Assembly (NCBI GenBank): GCA_965232175.1
Contig: CBDDOW010000006.1
Location: 1,315,764-1,379,763, forward strand
From: Nitrospirales bacterium
GTDB lineage: Bacteria > Nitrospirota > Nitrospiria > Nitrospirales > UBA8639
Direction: 5' to 3'
DNA length: 64,000 nt
Shown: positions 3,134 through 17,461 of the stretch, piece by piece
Position numbering within the stretch: the first letter of the stretch is position 1
Layout of the letters: every line of letters starts with the position of its first letter
Program-made: the position numbers and the translations under genes
The notes under the pieces: model-generated
Told to the model about the DNA's origin: nothing
Seen by the model: only the letters and a program-made list of their open reading frames with translations
The model's database searches: none

Positions 3134-3208
3134 TGGTGGGCGATACTGGTATCGAACCAGTGGCCTCTTCCGTGTGAGGGAAGCGCTCTCCCACTGAGCT
3201 AATCGCCC
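3134..3208 (-). tRNA. tRNA-Val (anticodon CAC), CCA encoded
   Basis: Reverse complement is GGGCGATTAGCTCAGTGGGAGAGCGCTTCCCTCACACGGAAGAGGCCACTGGTTCGATACCAGTATCGCCCACCA. It folds as a cloverleaf: 7-bp acceptor stem, anticodon loop CTCACAC, T-loop TTCGATA. Confidence 0.9.
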
Positions 3209-7559: not shown

Positions 7560-7883
7560 TTATGAAGCAACACCGCCCTTTGGGCTATTTTCGCCGATTC
7601 CTTCCTGCATATAATCGACAACAATTCTGACAAGCTGTTTAATCGTATCGTTGCACCTATGGTATGTAATGTTTTCTAGAGCTTTGTCTCCATATTGTCG
7701 AATCGCGTCACTAACCAGTGCATGAATAAACGACTGCGTTGTTGCATCAACACCGTCGAAATTCAATATAACCTTTTGATTTTGCGCCAGTGCTGGAAAA
7801 AGTTCGTTACGTCGGATATCCCTTGCGATGTCTTTGTTCTCTGCAAAAGATCCTGCTTTCGCAAAAATATTAATTCGTCTCAT
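7560..7883 (-). CDS. STAS-like DUF4325 domain protein
   Basis: 107 aa. KVILNFDGVDATTQSFIHALVSDAI matches my memory of the STAS-like DUF4325 fold. The ATGA overlap with the upstream ATPase gene suggests coupling. AT-richer than the flanks. Confidence 0.55.
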   Translation of the reverse strand: MRRINIFAKAGSFAENKDIARDIRRNELFPALAQNQKVILNFDGVDATTQSFIHALVSDAIRQYGDKALENITYHRCNDTIKQLVRIVVDYMQEGIGENSPKGGVAS

Positions 7884-8854
7884 GATGTGAACCTCGGTTT
7901 TTTGTATCGTGCCTTCCTGCGTTCTCGTATTTCTTTGCCATATGTTTCTCGGATTAAATCCAAAAGATTCGAGAATTCTCGTGTCCTATCGAGCGCGATA
8001 TTTACGCCAACAACTGTGCCCTTCCAATATGGGTATGTTTCATCCTTTGAGTGCTTATCTTCAAACGGATCGGCGGCTAAAACGGTGCGGCTTGTCGTTG
8101 GTTTTCGGAGTAATTTATACAATGCCTTCCCGCTGTAGATGATAAAGAAATCTCTATTTACACTCGCAATCGATTTGGTAAAAAACAATCCAGCTCCAGC
8201 GTTTTCCGGCGTCCCCCCCTCTCGTTTGGTTGTACCAGTAATCCCGGGCTGTAAGGCAAGCCGAATTGCGTCCATGTCAGTCAAGGCTGGATATGATTGA
8301 TTTATGGCTTTCTTAATGCCAATCCCCGTATCAGCAATCCCAATCCCGACCGAATTGCTCTTTTTGTAATATTGGGCACATATAATTGCGCCATGTTCTG
8401 CCTGCGCATGTTCGATTACGTTTCTGACTAATTCGCTGGCGATATAACGCAGGGTTTGGGCTTGGGCTGGCCGATCTTGAAGATGCAGCAATGGGATCAT
8501 GTTTGTAATAAATTGTGTGGCTTCGTCTGAGTTTTGAATCCTCGACAAGGGGATAAACCGACCGGAGGGGTCATGTTCTAGAACCGTATCCTCTGCTGGG
8601 TCAAGCCCCAAAAAATCCAGGAGCCCCATGCGAATGATGTAATTTTTCGACTTTGACGCGAATTTAATGCATTGAATATGTCGGGTTTCGACCGTTGAGC
8701 CAAGTGCCGCAATCATCGCTAAAACCACTGGATGTACAGCCATCCACTTCTCATTTGCTCTTATTTGAAGTTCCCCCGGCGAGGCTGGGTCAAAATTTCT
8801 CAGAAAATGGTTAATATTACCCAGGAAGGCGCTATTTGGTATATAAATCTTCAT
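7880..8854 (-). CDS. GHKL/histidine-kinase-like ATPase (RsbW/SpoIIAB-like) with unknown N-terminal domain
   Basis: Bergerat-fold motifs: ELVRNVIEHA (N box), IADTGIGI (G1), GAGLFF (G2). The ~130-aa N-terminal region has no recognisable motif. Confidence 0.6.
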   Translation of the reverse strand: MKIYIPNSAFLGNINHFLRNFDPASPGELQIRANEKWMAVHPVVLAMIAALGSTVETRHIQCIKFASKSKNYIIRMGLLDFLGLDPAEDTVLEHDPSGRFIPLSRIQNSDEATQFITNMIPLLHLQDRPAQAQTLRYIASELVRNVIEHAQAEHGAIICAQYYKKSNSVGIGIADTGIGIKKAINQSYPALTDMDAIRLALQPGITGTTKREGGTPENAGAGLFFTKSIASVNRDFFIIYSGKALYKLLRKPTTSRTVLAADPFEDKHSKDETYPYWKGTVVGVNIALDRTREFSNLLDLIRETYGKEIRERRKARYKKPRFTS

Positions 8855-8862
8855 GCTTGAAA

Positions 8863-8910
8863 TTTACCGGGAATCCAGGTATTTTGTCAAATACCTGGAT
8901 TCCCGGTAAA
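8863..8910. repeat. perfect 22-bp inverted repeat (hairpin, 4-nt loop)
   Basis: tttaccgggaatccaggtattt tgtc aaatacctggattcccggtaaa, 9 nt upstream of the ATPase start codon. Confidence 0.95.
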
Positions 8911-9128
8911 CTTACTTGAAAATTCTTAACGGCTCACACGTAATATCTTCATGAATAGGCTCAATAAGGAGCAACGCGCACAAGAGGTATCTGCCTTAGC
9001 TGTGTAGGTGGATTAGCGTAGCGTAATCCAACAATTGCCATTCCGCGGTCCGATGATCGAACAGGTCGAGAAAAGTTCCAAGCTTTGCACGCGCCGGAAC
9101 GTTATCCTTTTAGAACACACACTAATGC

Positions 9129-9365
9129 ATGAGGCAGAACATGAGCGCAATTGTTGGTGATGACGGATCAGGCCGGTATGTCGATCTGGTTGCGAAGTAC
9201 TATGGGGACCCGGAATTTCGGGCACGGATGGATGCGGACCCGGCCGGAACGTTGAAGGCTGAGGGCTTCGAGATCCCCGAGGGCGCGGAGGTGCGAATCG
9301 TGGTGGATTCCGGCAACGCCGTGAACATCGTGCTGCCGCCCTCACCCGGGGACTCAGCCGGATAA
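9129..9365 (+). CDS. NHLP (nitrile-hydratase-like leader peptide)-related small protein without obvious core
   Basis: DPEFRARMDADPAGTLKAEGFEIPEGAEVRIVVDSGNAVNIVLPPSP follows the NHLP leader pattern. It ends ...GDSAG with no Cys/Ser/Thr-rich core. Confidence 0.55.
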   Translation: MRQNMSAIVGDDGSGRYVDLVAKYYGDPEFRARMDADPAGTLKAEGFEIPEGAEVRIVVDSGNAVNIVLPPSPGDSAG

Positions 9366-9429
9366 CCGTCCCGCCCTGGGCGAGGCCAGGCGCCGCCCGA
9401 TTGAGCCTGAATCGAGGAGGGATTCACCC

Positions 9430-9714
9430 ATGCAAACGATTGATGAAATGCGAAAACAGTTGATTGCCAAGTCCACGGACGACCTGGCCTTCCGGAGCCG
9501 GTTGTTGGCGGAGCCCCGGGCCGTGGTCGAGGAGGAGTTCGATATCACGGTGCCGGAGGGCATGGACGTGCGGGTCCTGGAGGACAGCCCCCAGGCGGTG
9601 CACCTGGTGCTGCCGCCCGAGCCCAAACTCAACATGCAGGATATGCGGCAGACGACTGGCGGGACGGGCATGCCCAGTGGCTGCTCGGGTGGCAGCATGA
9701 ATCTCTACGAGTGA
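9430..9714 (+). CDS. NHLP-family RiPP precursor 1
   Basis: Leader is MQTIDEMRKQLIAKSTDDLAFRSRLLAEPRAVVEEEFDITVPEGMDVRVLEDSPQAVHLVLPPEP. It has a GG motif followed by the core TGMPSGCSGGSMNLYE. The RBS gaggaggg is upstream. Confidence 0.8.
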   Translation: MQTIDEMRKQLIAKSTDDLAFRSRLLAEPRAVVEEEFDITVPEGMDVRVLEDSPQAVHLVLPPEPKLNMQDMRQTTGGTGMPSGCSGGSMNLYE

Positions 9715-9775
9715 TGATGGCCCGCGGCTTTTCCGGCGTTGTCGTCGCGCCTCCCTGTCCCGAACGGGGCCGGTT

Positions 9776-12013
9776 GTGACCGGCAACGTTGCGTCTGCGC
9801 CGCAGGGCGTGCGGCATGTGACCGCGGCCGACAAGGGGCTGGTGACCGTTCCGATGCTGGCGCCGCACCTCCGGTTCGACGTCGTGAACTCGGACCGGGT
9901 GCTGTTGGTGGCGGAGGGTGTTGCCGTTGAACTGAATGGGCGGTGCTTTGGGAGCCTGCTGCCGTTGCTCGATGGCAGTCGCACGCGGCGGCAGGTGCTT
10001 GCCGAGCTTGAGAACGGGCATTCGCCGGTTGAGGTGCAGACGGCGTTGGTCCGGTTGGCTTCTTCCGGCTTCGTGGTGTCGGCGGAGTTCAATATGGCGC
10101 CGGAGCTGGCGGCGTTCTGGAGCGCGCTCGGCGCCTCTCCGTCTCGGGCGCAGGAATGCCTTGGCGCGACCCCGGTCGAGGTCCGCGGGGACGATGGCGC
10201 GCTTGCGACGTATCTTGCCGGTCTCGGCGCAGTCGTCGGCGCGGACGCGCCGGGGCTTCGCCTCGTTGTCACCGACGACTATCTGTCGCAACGGCACGAG
10301 GCGTTTCATGCGGCCGGCGGGAACGGCCGGCCATGGTTGCTGGTCAAGCCGACGGACGCGCGAGCCCTGTTTGGCCCGGTCTTCGGTCGGGACGCCGCGT
10401 GCTGGCGCTGTTTTTCACGGCGCCTGTCCGCCACGAGTCAACTGGAGTCCTTCCTGCGCGGGAAATCCGCCCGGCCCGGCTCGTCGCCGCTCGCGGCGGC
10501 GGCCTACGCCCTGGCGGCGGTGGAAATCGCCAAATGGATCGTCTTCGGAGAGGAGGCGCCGCTCCATGATCGCGCGATGTCCGTTGATGCCGCCACCGGA
10601 ACCGGCTTTCACCATGCGCCGCGCTGGCCGCAATGTCCCGACTGCGGCGTGAACGCGGACCCTGCGCCTGTGCCGCCGCAGTTGGGCGCGAGCGCGAATA
10701 CGCTGCGCAACAGCGGCGGGACGAGATCGATTCACCCCGAGGAGACGCTGAGACGTCTTCGCCATCTGGTCGATCCGGTGACCGGTATCGTCACGGACCT
10801 CCGGCGGATCGGGGACCCGTCCGATCCGTGGTTCTTTGTCTATCTGGCCAGCTTTGCCCCGACCGTCCTGGCTTCGAGCTATGCGGAGTTACGCTTCGGG
10901 ATTGTCCGCGGGTCCAGCGCCGGCAAGGGCAGCACGCCCGCCCAGGCGGAAGCCAGCGCGCTCTGCGAGGCGATCGAACGGTATTCGGGTATCCTCCAGG
11001 GCGGGGAGGTCGTGCTGCGGCGCAGGATGGATGAATTCCCCGATGGCGCGGCGTTGCCGCCCAATGCAATCGAACGGTTCAGCGACGTCCAGTTTGAACA
11101 GCCGCCCGACGTGGCGCGTCTCCGGTCAAGGCCGGTGCCGTTCGACGCCTCGCAGGCGCTCGACTGGACGCCGGTCTGGTCATTGACCGCGGAGGCCTGG
11201 CGGTACATCCCCACCCGGCTGCTCTACTATGCCTCGCCGGTGGAGGGGGAAGCCAACCAGTTCCTCGCCAATTCCAATGGCTGCGCATCCGGCAACACGT
11301 TCGAGGAGGCGATTCTCCAGGGCTTTTTCGAGCTTGTCGAGCGCGACGCGTTTGCCTGCTGGTGGTACAACCAGATCCGGGTACCGGCGGTGGACCTGGC
11401 GAGCTTCGACAACCAGTATCTGGCCGAAGCCCCGGCGCGCTACGAACGGGCCGGCCGGGAGATGTGGATGCTCGACGTCACCCACGATCTCGGCATTCCG
11501 GTGTTCGTCGCGTTGTCCCGCTGCGACTCGGGCGGCGAGGATCGCATCCTCTACGGGGTCGGGTGCCATTTCGACCCGCTTGTGGCCGCGTCGCGCGCGG
11601 TCTGCGAACTCAATCAGATCCATCTGGCGGGGACGCTCCCGCAGAAACAGGACAGCGCTCGCGCCGACGAATGGCTGCGCACGGCGAGGATAGCCGACAA
11701 ACCCTATCTTGCGCCGGACCCTGCCACGTCGCTCCGCAAGGCGCCGCCTTCCCGCGCGCCCGGCACGGGCGACCACCGCGACGATATCGCGCTCTGCCGC
11801 CGGATCGTGGAGGATGCGGGCATGGAATTCCTGGTGCTCGACCAGACCCGGGCTGACATTGGTCTGCCGGTCGCGCGGGTGATTGTTCCGGGACTCAGGC
11901 ATTTCTGGCCGAGGTTCGGATCCGGCCGGCTCTACGACGTCCCCGTTGCCATGGGCTGGCGCGCTGCGCCGCTGGCCGAAGCCGAATTCAACCCCGATGA
12001 GCCGGTGTTCTGA
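9776..12013 (+). CDS. fused TOMM-type cyclodehydratase (E1-like leader-binding domain + YcaO domain)
   Basis: 745 aa. The YcaO region is SSAGKGSTPAQAEASALCEAIERYSG...ANSNGCASGNTFEEAILQGFFELVERDAF. The size and architecture resemble PatD/TruD-type heterocyclases. The start could be 9776 or 9854. Confidence 0.8.
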   Translation: MTGNVASAPQGVRHVTAADKGLVTVPMLAPHLRFDVVNSDRVLLVAEGVAVELNGRCFGSLLPLLDGSRTRRQVLAELENGHSPVEVQTALVRLASSGFVVSAEFNMAPELAAFWSALGASPSRAQECLGATPVEVRGDDGALATYLAGLGAVVGADAPGLRLVVTDDYLSQRHEAFHAAGGNGRPWLLVKPTDARALFGPVFGRDAACWRCFSRRLSATSQLESFLRGKSARPGSSPLAAAAYALAAVEIAKWIVFGEEAPLHDRAMSVDAATGTGFHHAPRWPQCPDCGVNADPAPVPPQLGASANTLRNSGGTRSIHPEETLRRLRHLVDPVTGIVTDLRRIGDPSDPWFFVYLASFAPTVLASSYAELRFGIVRGSSAGKGSTPAQAEASALCEAIERYSGILQGGEVVLRRRMDEFPDGAALPPNAIERFSDVQFEQPPDVARLRSRPVPFDASQALDWTPVWSLTAEAWRYIPTRLLYYASPVEGEANQFLANSNGCASGNTFEEAILQGFFELVERDAFACWWYNQIRVPAVDLASFDNQYLAEAPARYERAGREMWMLDVTHDLGIPVFVALSRCDSGGEDRILYGVGCHFDPLVAASRAVCELNQIHLAGTLPQKQDSARADEWLRTARIADKPYLAPDPATSLRKAPPSRAPGTGDHRDDIALCRRIVEDAGMEFLVLDQTRADIGLPVARVIVPGLRHFWPRFGSGRLYDVPVAMGWRAAPLAEAEFNPDEPVF

Positions 12014-12174
12014 TGCTGATACCCGGAAGCGCGCGGTCAGCTCAGGCAAACGCAAGCCCGGGACGCGGGATTGAAAAAAATCTTCCCGGAATGCCAAGGA
12101 ATCCGCTCCGGCTGACGTTTACTATTAATATAAATGACAGAGGCGTCACGTAACTTGGCAAAGGAGGTATGTCA

Positions 12175-12480
12175 ATGCAAACGATGGACGAGATGCGGGC
12201 GCAATTGCTGACAAAATCCACGGACGACCTGGCCTTTCGGAGCCGGTTGCTCGCGGAGCCCCGGGCCGTGATCGAGGAGGAGTTCGGGATCACGGTGCCG
12301 GCGAGCGTGGACGTCCGGGTCATGGAGGACAGCCCCCAGGCGGTACACCTGGTGCTGCCGCCCGAACCCAATCTCAGCCTGGATCAGTTGGATCAGGCGT
12401 CCGGCGGCGGATTTTCTTACACGGCGGAAGATTGGGATCCGCAGGATCAGGGTAGTCATGGCATGTCCGGAACCGAATGA
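12175..12480 (+). CDS. NHLP-family RiPP precursor 2
   Basis: The leader is nearly identical to precursor 1. The core after ASGG is GFSYTAEDWDPQDQGSHGMSGTE. The RBS aaggagg lies 7 nt before the ATG at 12175. Confidence 0.75.
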   Translation: MQTMDEMRAQLLTKSTDDLAFRSRLLAEPRAVIEEEFGITVPASVDVRVMEDSPQAVHLVLPPEPNLSLDQLDQASGGGFSYTAEDWDPQDQGSHGMSGTE

Positions 12481-12651
12481 TGCCGGCGCGCGTTGGCCAT
12501 GACTCATTGTGAGGTCTGTCGTCGGCTGCCCTGCTGCCGCGGGCCGGGACGGGGGATCGAACAAATGTCCCCGGAGGAATCTTCACGGGCTGGTGCCTTT
12601 ATGATAAGGTCGTGATCTTACGGACTTGAGTTCGATGGTGTTTTTTTGCTT

Positions 12652-13188
12652 ATGCAATCGGACGAAATCTTGGCTCAGCGAGTCGTGGCAGGCGATGCCG
12701 ACGCCTTTGTCGAGTTGCTCGATCGGCATTACGGCCGGATCTATCGGATTGGTTTCCACGCGCTGGGCGATGCCGAAGCCGCGGCTGATTTGGCGCAGGA
12801 CATTTGTGTGGCCCTGCCCGCCAAGCTCTCTCAGTTTCGCGGTGATCACGGGTTCTCCAGTTGGCTCTACCGGGTGGTCGTCAACGCGGCAAGCGATGCG
12901 CGACGGCGCAGATCTTCGCGGCAACGCAACGAGGCCCTCTATGCCGAGGCGGAAGCCCTGAGGCGGGCCGGCGAGGTTGCGCGCGCGGAAGAGTTGATGT
13001 GGTTGCGGCAGGCGCTGGATTGCCTTCCCGAGAATCTGCTGGCCACCGCGATTCTCGTCGTGGACCAGGGGCTGCGGCATGCCGACGCGGGCGAGATTCT
13101 GGGTGTGTCTGAAGTGACCGTGTCATGGCGGATGCACCAGATACGAAAGTGCTTGCGCGCCATGGCAGCGAGTGAGGATATGGCATGA
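12652..13188 (+). CDS. ECF-type RNA polymerase sigma-70 family factor
   Basis: Region 2 is DAFVELLDRHYGRIYRIGFHALGDAEAAADLAQDI...SSWLYRVVVNAASD. Region 4 is LPENLLATAILVVDQGLRHADAGEILGVSEVTVSWRMHQIRKCL. Confidence 0.8.
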   Translation: MQSDEILAQRVVAGDADAFVELLDRHYGRIYRIGFHALGDAEAAADLAQDICVALPAKLSQFRGDHGFSSWLYRVVVNAASDARRRRSSRQRNEALYAEAEALRRAGEVARAEELMWLRQALDCLPENLLATAILVVDQGLRHADAGEILGVSEVTVSWRMHQIRKCLRAMAASEDMA

Positions 13189-13634
13189 CCGATCCACTTG
13201 AAAGATTGAAAGCTGCATTCCGCGCCACTGTGCCGGGCGTTGCCGAGGCAGCGCGGAAACGGGCGATTGAGGCTGCGCTGACGGCCTTTGGTCGCCATCG
13301 ACCGGGGAAGACCCGGTCGGCGAACACAACGCACAACAACAAAGGAAAGGATGTGCAGATGCAAACGATTGATGAAATGCGAAAACAGTTGATTGCCAAG
13401 TCCACGGATGATCAGGCCTTCCGGGGCCGGTTGTTCGCGGAGCCCAGGGCCGTGATTGAGGAGGAATTCGGGATCACGGTGCCGGCGAGGGTGGACGTGC
13501 GGATCATGGAGGACAGCCCCCAGGCGGTGCATCTGGTGCTGCCGCCCGAACCCAAGCTCGACATGAAGGAGTTACAGCAGGCCTCGGGAGGCTTTTGCGC
13601 CGAGACCTGTTCTGCGGAGGAGTTGTATGAATGA
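13185..13634 (+). CDS. NHLP-family RiPP precursor 3, in frame with a 58-codon N-terminal extension that overlaps the sigma-factor stop codon
   Basis: The minimal precursor is 13359-13634 (MQTIDEMRKQLIAK...ASGG FCAETCSAEELYE). The upstream in-frame ORF starts with an ATGA overlap at 13185. Confidence 0.7.
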   Translation: MTDPLERLKAAFRATVPGVAEAARKRAIEAALTAFGRHRPGKTRSANTTHNNKGKDVQMQTIDEMRKQLIAKSTDDQAFRGRLFAEPRAVIEEEFGITVPARVDVRIMEDSPQAVHLVLPPEPKLDMKELQQASGGFCAETCSAEELYE

Positions 13635-14680
13635 TAGCGGAAGCTGGTCGGACGCCCTTGCCGGCGGATGAATCGCGGTGTGAAGGCCCGGGGCACGTTG
13701 CAGAGGCGTGGCAGCCTGTGCGGTGCTTCCTGCCGGAGACGCTGGTGGACGAAGCGGGCTGGGGCGGCCTTCTCTCCCTGGTGGCCGGGCTGCCGCGTCT
13801 GGCCATGAACAGCGTGTTCGGGTTCGAAAGCCGGCTTGGGGAACCCCGTCTCGCCGCGGATTTCCATCTGCTTGTGCAATTGGCCACGCCTCTGGCTGAT
13901 TGGTTTCGGCGTTTCCGCGGCGCGGCTGCCGCGGGGCGGCTTCTGAAACGGCTGGGGGACCGCGAGTTCCCCCTGGCGGACCGGGTCCGCAATATCATTC
14001 TCGAATACGATCTCGTAGACGCGTCTCCGGCCGGTCCCCCGCCTGAACCCGGCCTGTTCCTGACCAGGCTCGACATGAAGCCGTCCGTCGCCGACACCGA
14101 CACGCTCCTCCGGGCCGTTCTGGACAGCGTTGAATGGCCGGAGGACGAAACAGAGTGCCGGGCGGTCCGGAAGACCGTAGACACGATCCCACAGAGCGGA
14201 CGTCTTGCCCATCTCGCGGTCCTGCCCGAACGGCGCCCTCGCGCTATCCGTCTTGGCGCCAAGGTCGGCTTGGAGGAACTGCCGGTTTTTCTTCGGGAGG
14301 TCGGCTGGCGTGGCGCGACCCCGGCCACGTGCCTGGCGATGGGGGATTTGCCGGGGATCAGGTCCGAATGCACGATCGCCTTCGACATTGTGGGAGGCAG
14401 GATTTCGCCGCGACTTTCGTTGGAATTTTTCCATGAGCAGCGAATACCCTCCACGCCGCCGGGAGCCTGGCGGGGATTCATCGACCGTCTGGTGGACGAG
14501 GGACTGTGCCTGCCGGACAAGGCGCGCGGGTTGCATGCGTCGTTCATGCCCTGTCAGGGGTTCGACGGGAACGGCTTCTGGACCGTGCGGGGAGGAATCC
14601 ATCATTTCAAGCTTGCGGTCGAGGCGGACGGCGCGGTCTCGGCCAAGGGGTATCTGGTCGTGTTCTACCTGCGTTGCTAG
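13631..14680 (+). CDS. hypothetical protein (349 aa) translationally coupled to precursor 3
   Basis: The ATG overlaps the precursor stop codon (gaatgatag). Amino-acid composition looks protein-like. I recognise no family. Confidence 0.5.
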   Translation: MIAEAGRTPLPADESRCEGPGHVAEAWQPVRCFLPETLVDEAGWGGLLSLVAGLPRLAMNSVFGFESRLGEPRLAADFHLLVQLATPLADWFRRFRGAAAAGRLLKRLGDREFPLADRVRNIILEYDLVDASPAGPPPEPGLFLTRLDMKPSVADTDTLLRAVLDSVEWPEDETECRAVRKTVDTIPQSGRLAHLAVLPERRPRAIRLGAKVGLEELPVFLREVGWRGATPATCLAMGDLPGIRSECTIAFDIVGGRISPRLSLEFFHEQRIPSTPPGAWRGFIDRLVDEGLCLPDKARGLHASFMPCQGFDGNGFWTVRGGIHHFKLAVEADGAVSAKGYLVVFYLRC

Positions 14681-14854: not shown

Positions 14855-16261
14855 ATGAGTTTTTTCGATCTGCCCCGCACGCCGGGGATCCATTGCCGAT
14901 TGCGCCGGGGGCACGATCTCTCCCGTTCCCGGGACGGCGGGTCCTTCACGCTGCGGCGGCCGGGCGGCGAATCCGAGCCGTTCGTATCGTATGAGGAAGC
15001 GTTCGCTGCCGCGCTCGACCGTCTGTCCGCGGGCGCGCATGCCTCCGAGCTGAGAAACCTTGCGCTCGGGGCCGGCGGACCGGCGCGGGCGGCCGCTTTC
15101 ATGATGTTGCTCCGGCGGCTGGCGGCTGCCGGTCTGGTCGAGTTTCCTCTTCTCGACGAGGCGGGAGAGCGGGCTGTGCTGTTGCCGCAGATTGCCACGT
15201 TCGAGCCTGCGCTCGCGGAGGAGCCGGCGCCGGACATCAGCCTCGACCGGTTCGCCTTCATCCGACGCGACGACCGGGGCTGGCTCCTGGAGTCGCCGCT
15301 GGTGGGGGCGCGGCTGTCGTTTTCCGATTCGGCGGCGCTGGACTCGCCTGTTGTGCGCCGCGCGCTCGCCGCGGCCGGGTTTCTTGAACAACGCGATGAC
15401 GATCCCCGGCATCGGGAAGCGCTCGATTTGTGGGAGTTCCACGATCTCGCTTTCTACCGTCATCATCGCGGGGGCTGGCATCAGGATCCCATGGGCGGGA
15501 TCTATCCCCATCTGGGAAGGATCGAGTCGCCGCCGGCGATCCGTTCGCCCTGGCCCGGGACACGCATCACGCTCCCCGTGGCCGTCGACCGGCCAAGCGC
15601 GGCCCTTGCCGACGTGCTGGAGCGGCGCGCTTCGATTCGGGCCTACGATCAGCGTCACCCTATTACGCTCAACGACGTCGGCGCGCTGTTCGACCGCGCT
15701 GTCCGCATCCGTGGCGACCTTGTCGTCTCCGGTACGTTCGGAGGCGGACCGGTCCGCACCGGGGCGCCGAGGCGGCCGTATCCCACCGGAGGCGGGTGCG
15801 GCGAGCTGGAGATTTACCTGGCCATCGACCGGGCCGCGGATATCGAGACAGGGCTCTATCACTACGATGCCGCGGACCACGCACTCGTGCGGCTCTGCGA
15901 CCGAACGCCCGCGGTCGCGGCGCTGCTCGCCGAAGCCCGGGATTCTGCCGGCGGCATCGACGAGACGCAGGCGCTCGTCATCGTGGCCGCGCGGTTTGCC
16001 CGGGTCATGTGGAAGTACAGCGCCATTGCCTATGCGCTCATCCTGCGCGATACCGGTGTTCTTTACCAGACGCTCTATCTGGCCGCGACCGACCTCGGAC
16101 TCGCTCCGTGCGCGCTCGGCAACGGCAACGCCGCGGCCTTTGCCGAGGCCACGGGCCTGGACCCGTTGATCGAGGGCAGCGTCGGGGAATTCCTTCTGGG
16201 CGGCCGGCCGACCGGCCCGGCGATGGCCGCGGCCGAGCAGCGGGCCGGCCGGGACGCATGA
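14855..16261 (+). CDS. SagB-type (nitroreductase-fold) azoline dehydrogenase
   Basis: ERRASIRAYD...RPYPTGGGCGELEIYLA....GLYHYDAADHAL...ALGNGNAAAFAEATGLDPLIEGSVGEFLLG resembles the SagB/ThcOx family. Confidence 0.75.
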   Translation: MSFFDLPRTPGIHCRLRRGHDLSRSRDGGSFTLRRPGGESEPFVSYEEAFAAALDRLSAGAHASELRNLALGAGGPARAAAFMMLLRRLAAAGLVEFPLLDEAGERAVLLPQIATFEPALAEEPAPDISLDRFAFIRRDDRGWLLESPLVGARLSFSDSAALDSPVVRRALAAAGFLEQRDDDPRHREALDLWEFHDLAFYRHHRGGWHQDPMGGIYPHLGRIESPPAIRSPWPGTRITLPVAVDRPSAALADVLERRASIRAYDQRHPITLNDVGALFDRAVRIRGDLVVSGTFGGGPVRTGAPRRPYPTGGGCGELEIYLAIDRAADIETGLYHYDAADHALVRLCDRTPAVAALLAEARDSAGGIDETQALVIVAARFARVMWKYSAIAYALILRDTGVLYQTLYLAATDLGLAPCALGNGNAAAFAEATGLDPLIEGSVGEFLLGGRPTGPAMAAAEQRAGRDA

Positions 16262-16356: not shown

Positions 16357-16740
16357 TCAGTCGCCGCAAGCCGGCGGGTTCCCCAACGTTCTCAGCGCCG
16401 CCTCCGCCGGGGTTTCCAGTTTTTTCCTGCGGTTACATTCCAGACATGCCGGGACGGTGTTGCCCTTGGTCGATTTTCCGCCGCGGGCCAGGGGCACGAC
16501 GTGGTCCATGGACAGTTGGTCCGGTTGAAACAGCTTGCCACAGTAGTGGCAGCGCCCGTTGTGGAGTTGCCGCTTCCACCAGGGCGTGCGTTTGAGGGCG
16601 CGGGCTTTTTCCCGCTCTTTGCGAATCCGTGTGGCGGTTTCGGGATCGGGGTCGATTTCAAAGTAACGTTCGGGCGGCATTCCCGTGAGCTTAAAGAAGT
16701 TTTCTGAATTTTTCACGTCGTTGGTCCACTGCCGGCCCAT
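16357..16740 (-). CDS. HNH endonuclease
   Basis: CHYCGKLFQPDQLSMDHVVPLARGGKSTKGNTVPACLECNRRK. Confidence 0.8.
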   Translation of the reverse strand: MGRQWTNDVKNSENFFKLTGMPPERYFEIDPDPETATRIRKEREKARALKRTPWWKRQLHNGRCHYCGKLFQPDQLSMDHVVPLARGGKSTKGNTVPACLECNRRKKLETPAEAALRTLGNPPACGD

Positions 16741-16828
16741 ACGAGGCGCAGACCGCCTCTCTCCATCGTGACGCGGGGCGCGACACATTCCGCTGGCGAC
16801 GGTTCCGGGCTGATGGTATACTGCCGTC

Positions 16829-17461
16829 ATGGACCGGCGAACACGGGCACTCGGGGTGACAGGCGGCCTGGCGGCCGCTCTTTTTTTGACGGGCGGGCTG
16901 AGCGGGGCCGCGATCGATCACGGCGTGTTCGAGGGCTTCATCCACCATATCGCCCGGCAGATTACCCGGGACAAAGTCGATTTTGCGGTCGCGGAGTCCT
17001 GTACGTCGTGGTTTTATGAGCAATTGAAACCGTCTCCCGGAATGCGGCCTGACGTGAAACGCCTGTCCTTTGTCGCGGACGCCGATCCCGACCCCGATTT
17101 CCACGCCTGTGCCGGTCGCTACCCCGGCATCGAGGAAGCGCGTCAGGCCTTTGCGCATACCCAATCCACCCTCTCGTTGAGCCTGACGTTTTATCAATTG
17201 GCCCTGATTGCCGACCGGGATGATGACGAACGCTATGACGCGAGCGAACTCCGGGATATATTGGCTTCCCTGAACGTGACGCCGTTGCCGGGAGAGTATC
17301 CCGGTCAGCTCCTTGCCACGCTGACGGGAAAATTCGACGACGTTCGTGAGGCGGTCGAGTTCACGATTCTGACCGATGGCATGCAGGCGCTGTACAGCAA
17401 GGGGTATCGCTTTACCAGCGCGGATCAGGCTGCGCTGGGCCGCGTGACGGGCGAGTCCTGA
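16829..17461 (+). CDS. secreted hypothetical protein with one EF-hand-like loop
   Basis: Signal-like N-terminus. DRDDDERYDASE fits the D-x-D-x-D...E 12-residue EF-hand loop. Confidence 0.4.
   Translation: MDRRTRALGVTGGLAAALFLTGGLSGAAIDHGVFEGFIHHIARQITRDKVDFAVAESCTSWFYEQLKPSPGMRPDVKRLSFVADADPDPDFHACAGRYPGIEEARQAFAHTQSTLSLSLTFYQLALIADRDDDERYDASELRDILASLNVTPLPGEYPGQLLATLTGKFDDVREAVEFTILTDGMQALYSKGYRFTSADQAALGRVTGES

Follow-up and report, generated by a model that had tools for sequence, protein, structure and literature searches.

An ECF sigma factor gene overlapped by an in-frame fusion of a putative anti-sigma module and a RiPP precursor in a Nitrospirales bacterium

Pairs formed by an extracytoplasmic function (ECF) sigma factor and its anti-sigma factor are a major signalling system, the inputs of which are nearly always envelope or stress signals received through a membrane anti-sigma factor. 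The anti-sigma factor FlgM of sigma-28 (FliA) is exported via the flagellar type III system, being itself a substrate of the apparatus that is regulated. Here we analyze a locus of a Nitrospirales bacterium at which a biosynthetic substrate appears to stand in place of the sensor half of an anti-sigma factor. In a stretch of 64,000 nucleotides (contig CBDDOW010000006.1 of assembly GCA_965232175.1, forward-strand positions 1,315,764 to 1,379,763; hereafter, the window), the gene for an ECF sigma factor is overlapped by a reading frame that leads from a module of about 40 residues into an NHLP-type precursor of a peptide that is ribosomally synthesized and modified post-translationally (RiPP).

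The described systems closest to this arrangement are of several kinds. MibX/MibW is an ECF sigma/anti-sigma pair within the microbisporicin lantibiotic cluster, for which sigma-dependent promoters and a feed-forward induction model have been described; MibW is a separate membrane anti-sigma factor and presumably senses the product once this has been exported (PMC4973701). In the group ECF289, the predicted anti-sigma factor is a DUF3520 (YfbK_C)/von Willebrand protein encoded by the +1 gene (Casas-Pastor et al., 2021; PMC7826278), and both ECF289 and the CnrH group ECF291 were split from the old group ECF20 (PMC7826278). The class II anti-sigma domains CnrY and NepR are short and two-helical, and helix 1 of CnrY contacts sigma-4 and helix 2 contacts sigma-2 (PMC7406223, PMC4598750). 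Our full-text literature searches (anti-sigma with NHLP; RiPP with ECF and leader peptide; proteusin with ECF) turned up no account of a RiPP precursor with an anti-sigma module fused to it.

The fused reading frame and its conservation

The sigma factor gene (12652 to 13188, plus strand) encodes 178 amino acids, starting at ATG 12652 (with an alternative TTG at 12646) and stopping at TGA 13186-13188. Its product matched Sigma70_r2 (5e-14), Sigma70_r4_2, and the sigma70-ECF family TIGR02937, the last with 81.8 bits at a cut-off of 42.9, and is by these matches an ECF sigma factor. Among homologues with 43-64% identity, the product of the +1 gene is a vWF_A/VWA/YfbK_C (formerly DUF3520) protein; judging from the Pfam and NCBIfam matches and from these partners, the window sigma factor is probably a member of an ECF289-like family, a group name that rests on the partner description in PMC7826278. 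Its nearest relatives of solved structure are SigW, SigH, and SigE rather than CnrH. A metagenome scan with the sigma alignment, for which the patterns were poorly chosen, returned only distant ECF sigma factors at up to 39% identity.

A preliminary description of the locus had placed an open reading frame (ORF) on the stop codon of the sigma gene, in the position of an anti-sigma gene, and had read it without interruption into an NHLP precursor; both observations were borne out. The start codon (ATG 13185-13187) of a frame that is open for 149 codons (13185 to 13634, plus strand; stop codon 13632-13634) shares the tetranucleotide ATGA (13185-13188) with the sigma stop codon, an overlap that points to translational coupling. 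The first 58 codons contain no stop before the internal ATG at 13359-13361, which has its own ribosome-binding site, aaaggaaagg, at 13341-13350. Three parts can be told apart in the fused frame. The N-terminal module, residues 1-39 (MTDPLERLKAAFRATVPGVAEAARKRAIEAALTAFGRHR; 13185 to 13301, plus strand), matched the hidden Markov model (HMM) of the module with 2e-24 and retains L8, P17, and F35, the residues that are invariant in the wider module family. A linker of 19 codons (13302 to 13358, plus strand), predicted to be disordered and holding the ribosome-binding site of the internal start, connects it to NHLP precursor 3 (13359 to 13634, plus strand), in which the leader extends to the GG motif (13359 to 13592) and is followed by the core FCAETCSAEELYE (13593 to 13631) and the stop codon. 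The TIGR03793 leader_NHLP model matched residues 63-136 of the 149 with 69.0 bits (cut-off 50.9), identifying this part as an NHLP protein. At the C-terminus the fusion reads ...QQASGG directly before the core, that is, a GG motif and a short Cys-containing core, and YcaO and SagB proteins are encoded in the same cluster.

Structure prediction agreed with this division. AlphaFold2 modelled the module as two helices, residues 4-15 and 21-36, around the invariant P17, with predicted local distance difference test (pLDDT) values of 64-74, whereas linker residues 38-56 were disordered (pLDDT <50) and the NHLP domain was folded. No membrane segment was found in any of the fusions, the maximum hydropathy being 0.58 in the window linker and at most 0.8 across the fusions, compared to 1.98 in a vWA-type partner. 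The NHLP part of the window fusion is 73% identical to precursor 2, an unfused precursor of the same cluster; its leader shares 68-73% identity with the unfused precursors there, and at the locus L001 the leaders of the fused and unfused precursors are nearly identical.

Relatives of the fusion were found by a search with the whole ORF and then by a search with the sigma factor, and the contigs of the nearest sigma homologues (66-73% identity) were read. The loci compared were the window, L001/L002/L165, L164, L166, L167-169, and L170; P0027 and P0032, which on long contigs are the closest two homologues, lie outside the comparison. The whole-ORF search returned the long forms P0002 and P0003, in which this N-terminus is joined to an NHLP domain through a longer linker. 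In L001, the long form overlaps the stop codon of a 71%-identical sigma gene (GTGA) and is followed by an unfused precursor copy with the same ribosome-binding region, an NHLP-like gene, and a YcaO gene, in that order. At every locus recovered for a nearest sigma homologue, the sigma-overlapping ORF begins with MTDP[LI]ERL and reads without a stop into an NHLP precursor, and the module-linker-NHLP frame is intact also at loci for which gene calling had yielded the short precursor alone. Accordingly, a search for a stop or frameshift between module and precursor, as the preliminary description had proposed, found none in the orthologous sigma-linked loci. The suggested anti-sigma position and translational coupling likewise proved general, since the post-sigma gene overlaps the sigma stop codon (by ATGA, GTGA, or 8 nucleotides) in all relatives found (L001, L002, L164-L170, and L003).

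The linker measures 19 residues in the window and 45, 50, 51, 32, and 50 residues in the other five of six lineages. At least four changes of linker length are required, all of them multiples of three, for which the neutral probability is about (1/3)^4 = 0.012. In ten pairwise comparisons (Nei-Gojobori), the ratio of nonsynonymous to synonymous substitution rates (dN/dS) for the first 39 codons was 0.12-0.37, with many synonymous differences and dS of up to 1.6, so the module is under purifying selection as a protein. The linker, with dN/dS of 0.4-1.2 by the same method, drifts near-neutrally in both sequence and length but never loses the frame, as one would expect if it is a disordered tether within a genuine protein. 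Additional long forms occur in the cluster members P0146, P0157, and P0158; their cores (FCDTGCIPCW, LCGSPGLCCW, and MCGGAGLCCW) are hypervariable and Cys-rich, whereas module and leader are conserved. Judged by these alignments, a hypervariable core beside a conserved module and leader is the evolutionary pattern of a genuine precursor, and the fused copy, with its conserved leader and hypervariable Cys-rich cores, seems to behave like a true one.

The preliminary description had cautioned that 58 open codons can arise by chance in GC-rich DNA. For the window by itself this caution holds: shuffled versions of the 57-nucleotide linker lacked a stop codon in 67% of cases (P = 0.67), and the other two frames of the linker are also open. 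The extension at the window alone is therefore compatible with chance, and the comparative evidence decides; across the relatives, with 39 codons conserved and the frame kept in six lineages, the caution no longer applies. The absence of stop codons from the linker was rejected as a stand-alone argument (P of 0.37-0.67 per locus). Based on the comparative results, we concluded with high confidence that the fusion protein is made and selected. At one locus, L165 (2806 to 3198), the fused gene (130 amino acids) ends in mid-leader, a deletion having taken the rest of the precursor together with the unfused copy that follows it; module and linker are intact.

The module among sigma partners and the origin of the fusion

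A profile search with a five-sequence module alignment against a set of 5.8 billion proteins gave no match, and an exhaustive single-sequence search returned only one further protein, P0025, in which the module occurs twice and is followed by a membrane helix; its gene overlaps the stop codon of a homologous sigma gene. This locus (L003, 361 to 1533) carries a tandem duplication of the module, and the upstream sigma gene is split by a frameshift; on this Logan contig, either a real variant or an assembly error would give such a picture.

The wider distribution of the module was seen in 80 loci with sigma factors of 43-64% identity, obtained when the sigma alignment was used to scan one genome of each species. 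The module HMM matched the ORF directly after the sigma gene in about 45 of them, with values from 1e-24 to 1e-9. The preliminary description had pointed to N-termini of this type on proteins encoded next to ECF sigma genes, and this was borne out: residues 1-39 of the fusion are homologous to ECF-associated proteins. The matching +1 proteins share one layout, in which a module of about 40 residues with a conserved ...AFDRHHQG end is followed by a basic stretch, a single membrane helix, and some 600 residues that comprise vWF_A, VWA, and YfbK_C domains (as also in L171). The module is the sole cytoplasmic part of this membrane-anchored partner and would therefore be its sigma-binding domain if the partner is an anti-sigma factor. 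Two features of anti-sigma genes are found in the window fusion gene: it adjoins and is coupled to the sigma gene, and it carries the sigma-facing domain that the family shares. From this family resemblance, the module is probably a partner or inhibitor of the sigma factor.

One locus shows the module on a different protein. In L017 (6531 to 7343), from a Caldilineaceae metagenome-assembled genome, the module overlaps the sigma gene and is in frame with a DUF899/AhpC-TSA-like thioredoxin-fold domain with a CRYC motif, and no vWA gene follows; this single example may represent an independent swap to a cytoplasmic redox-type sensor.

In a neighbour-joining tree without bootstrap, the sigma factors of the NHLP-type loci, the window sigma factor included, form one clade nested among those of the vWA type, and the next-nearest homologue with a readable contig (P0035, 64% identity) is vWA-type. 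The fusion therefore appears to have arisen once, a precursor replacing anchor and sensor, and to have been retained thereafter. The clade has two branches. The first comprises the TOMM-type (thiazole/oxazole-modified microcin) loci, namely the window and L001/L002/L165, with Cys-rich cores beside YcaO. The second has precursors of another NHLP subfamily, with acidic Trp-containing cores (DMWAGGTTMDPPMD, DFWDQFQL, and NNWDTDNWDVSDDDGNPWTPD) and not beside YcaO. In this second branch (L164 3900 to 9600, L166, and L167), the short cores lack Cys, a FAD_binding_4 oxidase or JmjC/cupin gene lies nearby, and no YcaO gene is present; its gene content suggests another class of RiPP under the same sigma factor. 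The locus L172 is a closely related TOMM cluster with the same precursors, NHLP-like gene, and YcaO gene that has no sigma gene, module, or promoter motif, which makes the module an accessory layer of regulation. A sigma-partner module 5' of the leader is absent from all unfused precursors examined (P0004-P0021 and those of L172).

Promoters, isoforms, and the surrounding cluster

A motif GCCAAGGAWT-N13-CGTC/T was present 50-80 nucleotides upstream of the sigma gene in 39 of 40 related loci of the vWA type and at every NHLP-type locus, and a position weight matrix (PWM) was built from the former. In the window, this PWM identified an ECF-type promoter motif at 12093 to 12125 on the plus strand (GCCAAGGAATCCGCTCCGGCTGACGTTTACTAT; 16.4 bits), consisting of the -35 element CCAAGGAAT, a 13-nucleotide spacer, and the -10 element CGTT. 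It is the sole match of at least 9 bits in the window, where 0.02 matches of at least 16 bits are expected per shuffled window, and it lies 45 nucleotides before precursor 2 (12169 to 12480, plus strand; TIGR03793, 72.6 bits), an unfused NHLP precursor with the upstream Shine-Dalgarno (SD) sequence aaaggagg and an alternative start at ATG 12175 (product MQTMDEM...). Between precursor 2 and the sigma gene, no significant RNA structure or terminator was seen (z = 0.18; weak hairpins only), so the likely transcription unit runs from precursor 2 through the sigma gene and the fusion to the gene for a 349-amino-acid protein, and perhaps on to the SagB gene. The 12093 motif is thus likely, as predicted from its sequence and placement, to be the autoregulated promoter of that operon. 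A second candidate (TCCAAGCTTT-N13-CGTT; 9077 to 9109, 7.3 bits) lies 50 nucleotides before the first operon of the cluster; about 0.3-3 such matches are expected per shuffled window, and it is a weak candidate, not significant alone but correctly placed. In L164, copies of the motif precede a 358-amino-acid protein gene, a divergent flavin adenine dinucleotide (FAD) oxidase gene, and an unfused 89-amino-acid NHLP precursor, and in L166 a copy precedes the next gene. With sigma-type promoters in front of them, the RiPP genes appear to be what the sigma factor is dedicated to.

An SD sequence stands 7-10 nucleotides before the internal NHLP ATG in all lineages, and because this internal start is conserved, an untethered short precursor is probably made from the fusion gene as well. 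A motif scan for an internal sigma-type promoter in the window linker found none. Of the 40 partner genes of the vWA type, 34 contain an internal second copy of the sigma-type promoter at a fixed offset, +109 to +142 and mostly +115 nucleotides (examples among L004-L083 are L004 6649, L008 3169, and L010 6646); its -35 element coincides with the HQG codons at the module end, and a conserved in-frame Met stands just before the membrane helix. The placement of this motif suggests a sigma-dependent transcript for a module-less isoform comprising the membrane helix and vWA part. The family thus seems to make both a tethered and an untethered form of its post-sigma protein, from an internal promoter in the vWA type and from an internal translation start in the NHLP type.

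The gene for the 349-amino-acid protein (13631 to 14680, plus strand) is translationally coupled to the fusion, its ATG overlapping the fusion stop codon (ATGA, 13631-13634). The protein is 31-32% identical to those encoded at L164 6825 to 7901 (358 amino acids), where the gene has its own copy of the sigma-type promoter, and at L167 2161 to 3285. A gene for a protein of about 350 residues is therefore common to both branches of the fusion clade and is the third member of the conserved module of genes, always found together with the sigma-fusion pair. The protein had no Pfam, NCBIfam, or PDB sequence match; a single-sequence model (pLDDT 41, unusable) showed a repeated helix-strand-strand-helix pattern in its C-terminal half.

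These genes belong to a TOMM-type RiPP cluster around the sigma gene that spans from the first operon (9129) to SagB (16261), as annotated with Pfam and NCBIfam. The first operon (9129 to 12013, plus strand) begins with the gene for a core-less NHLP-like protein (9129-9365), continues with that for precursor 1 (9430-9714), and ends with that for a fused leader-binding/YcaO cyclodehydratase (9776-12013). The last gene of the cluster (14855 to 16261, plus strand) encodes a SagB-type dehydrogenase (TIGR03605, 148.6 bits; Pfam Nitroreductase and ThcOx). NHLP-related proteins of 70-81 amino acids without GG motif or core, like that of the first operon, also occur at L001 1818-2030, L165 3215-3460, and L172 9324-9569; in the related TOMM loci their genes lie directly 5' of the YcaO gene, and the proteins resemble a leader-like protein minus the substrate part. 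A low-GC segment (7695-9000; 45% compared to about 65%) that flanks the cluster contains a HATPase-like gene on the minus strand (7880-8854), a minus-strand gene for an HNH endonuclease (16357-16830) lies on the other flank, and 6 kb upstream there is a tRNA gene (3137-3208); such surroundings hint at acquired DNA as the site of the cluster. Rfam gave no match in the region.

Coupling of sigma release to precursor maturation, and comparison with known systems

The reading that we favour overall, at about even odds, is that the fusion is a soluble anti-sigma factor and at the same time a maturation substrate, so that, as the preliminary description had proposed, sigma release is coupled to precursor processing. 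The overlap of stop and start codons would lead to synthesis of the sigma factor and the fusion at about 1:1, and the module would sequester the sigma factor. The NHLP part would make this anti-sigma factor a substrate or ligand of the maturation machinery through leader binding by the YcaO fusion, modification, leader cleavage at the GG motif, and turnover, and engagement or destruction of the fusion would free the sigma factor. Free sigma factor would then drive the CCAAGGAWT-N13-CGTY promoters, that is, the operon of precursor 2, sigma gene, fusion, and 349-amino-acid protein gene, and probably the remainder of the cluster. Untethered precursor would come from the internal SD and ATG, and the free and tethered forms would compete for the same enzymes; the outcome could be feed-forward induction or a precursor supply matched to enzyme capacity. 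Taken by itself, the step that couples sigma release to processing falls somewhat short of an even chance. The broadest form of the idea, in which the precursor also serves its pathway as anti-sigma factor, allowing the cell to gauge maturation flux, as one instance of a family-wide rule of tethered and untethered isoforms, is more tentative still.

Several observations weigh against sigma release coupled to processing. The module profile gave only noise against PDB chains, with no similarity to any solved anti-sigma domain, and the anti-sigma role of the ECF289 vWA partner is itself a prediction from genomic context (PMC7826278). Near the window cluster, neither a leader protease nor a C39 exporter was found, which leaves the proposed release step without an identified enzyme. 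Given the conserved internal SD and ATG, the short form may be the main product. The openness of the linkers is weak evidence alone at the chance probabilities given above, the other frames being mostly open, and at L165 the fused precursor is truncated in mid-leader. The TOMM cluster of L172 does without sigma factor and module, and because the fusion has a single origin, the evidence is one of retention rather than repeated invention.

The same observations lend themselves in part to another account, in which the module is an anti-sigma factor and the NHLP part a soluble carrier or stabiliser, release responds to some different signal (general proteolysis, redox state, or growth phase, for instance), and only the isoform from ATG 13359 is a real precursor. 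The conservation of the internal SD and ATG in every lineage fits this account, as does the failure to find a leader protease near the cluster, and the occurrence of the module on the unrelated cytoplasmic DUF899 domain in L017 indicates that it tolerates other passengers. However, what the module carries is in each case an entire precursor of the type found at that locus, GG motif and hypervariable core included, and its subfamily changes with the locus between TOMM-type and W-rich acidic cores; moreover, promoters before the RiPP genes imply a pathway-dedicated sigma factor, for which a pathway-derived input is the economical reading. We therefore regard this carrier account as unlikely. It is more doubtful still that the partner is not an inhibitor at all and serves instead as a tether of the sigma factor or RNA polymerase near the nascent precursor, as an extra leader segment for the 349-amino-acid protein, or as a sigma chaperone or activator. 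Such roles gain from the fact that inhibition in the ECF289-type family is a prediction only and from the 349-amino-acid protein gene, which is coupled to the fusion and conserved together with the module, but the post-sigma position, stop codon overlap, and autoregulated promoter are the standard sigma/anti-sigma signature, and an ancestral module that was the sole cytoplasmic part of a membrane sensor is the canonical anti-sigma layout. That the 58 codons are the decaying relic of a truncated anti-sigma gene or an open GC-rich non-coding leader, with translation from 13359 alone being of consequence, is strongly disfavoured and very improbable: the unremarkable open linker of the window, the disregard of the long form by some gene callers, and the demonstration by L165 that the gene can be damaged stand against the low module dN/dS at saturated synonymous divergence between lineages, a start codon and sigma-stop overlap kept everywhere, a frame that survived at least four indels, and the retained invariant residues.

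If sigma release is indeed coupled to precursor processing, the locus would provide a direct molecular link between the processing of a precursor and the transcription of its RiPP cluster, which would account for the auto-induction of some silent clusters. The sigma factor, the 40-residue module, and the defined promoter would make up a compact, portable switch to activate or report RiPP pathways of uncultivated symbiont-type bacteria, and a minimal, testable sigma-facing module and promoter of an uncharacterised ECF289-type family would be defined.

In comparison with known systems, the C-terminal 91 residues of the fusion are a standard NHLP precursor beside YcaO and SagB, as in other TOMM/YcaO clusters, whereas among the precursors examined a sigma-partner module 5' of the leader was seen only in the fusions. 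With the ECF289 pairs, the locus shares the sigma family (43-64% identity), the roughly 40-residue module of the +1 protein, the stop/start overlap, and the autoregulatory motif. It differs from them in that a soluble NHLP precursor takes the place of the membrane helix and of the roughly 600 extracytoplasmic residues of the vWA/YfbK_C part, both of which are absent, and in using an internal SD and ATG where the vWA-type genes have an internal sigma-type promoter. Like the class II domains CnrY and NepR, the module is very short and has two helices, as predicted by the model; a difference is that no PDB chain shows detectable similarity to its sequence. Membership of class II is not claimed, the PDB search having returned only noise and CnrH not being the nearest solved sigma factor. 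The closest functional analogue is MibX/MibW, likewise a pathway-specific ECF sigma factor with a partner inside a RiPP cluster. Unlike MibW, the window module is covalently part of a precursor that lacks a membrane segment, and the input would therefore be intracellular processing rather than an extracellular product. The closest logical analogue is FlgM, with which the fusion has no homology; in both cases, by analogy, the consumption of a substrate-type anti-sigma factor may release the sigma factor, the proposed sink in the window being RiPP maturation, leader cleavage, and turnover rather than export, and FlgM-like logic would thereby extend to natural-product biosynthesis.

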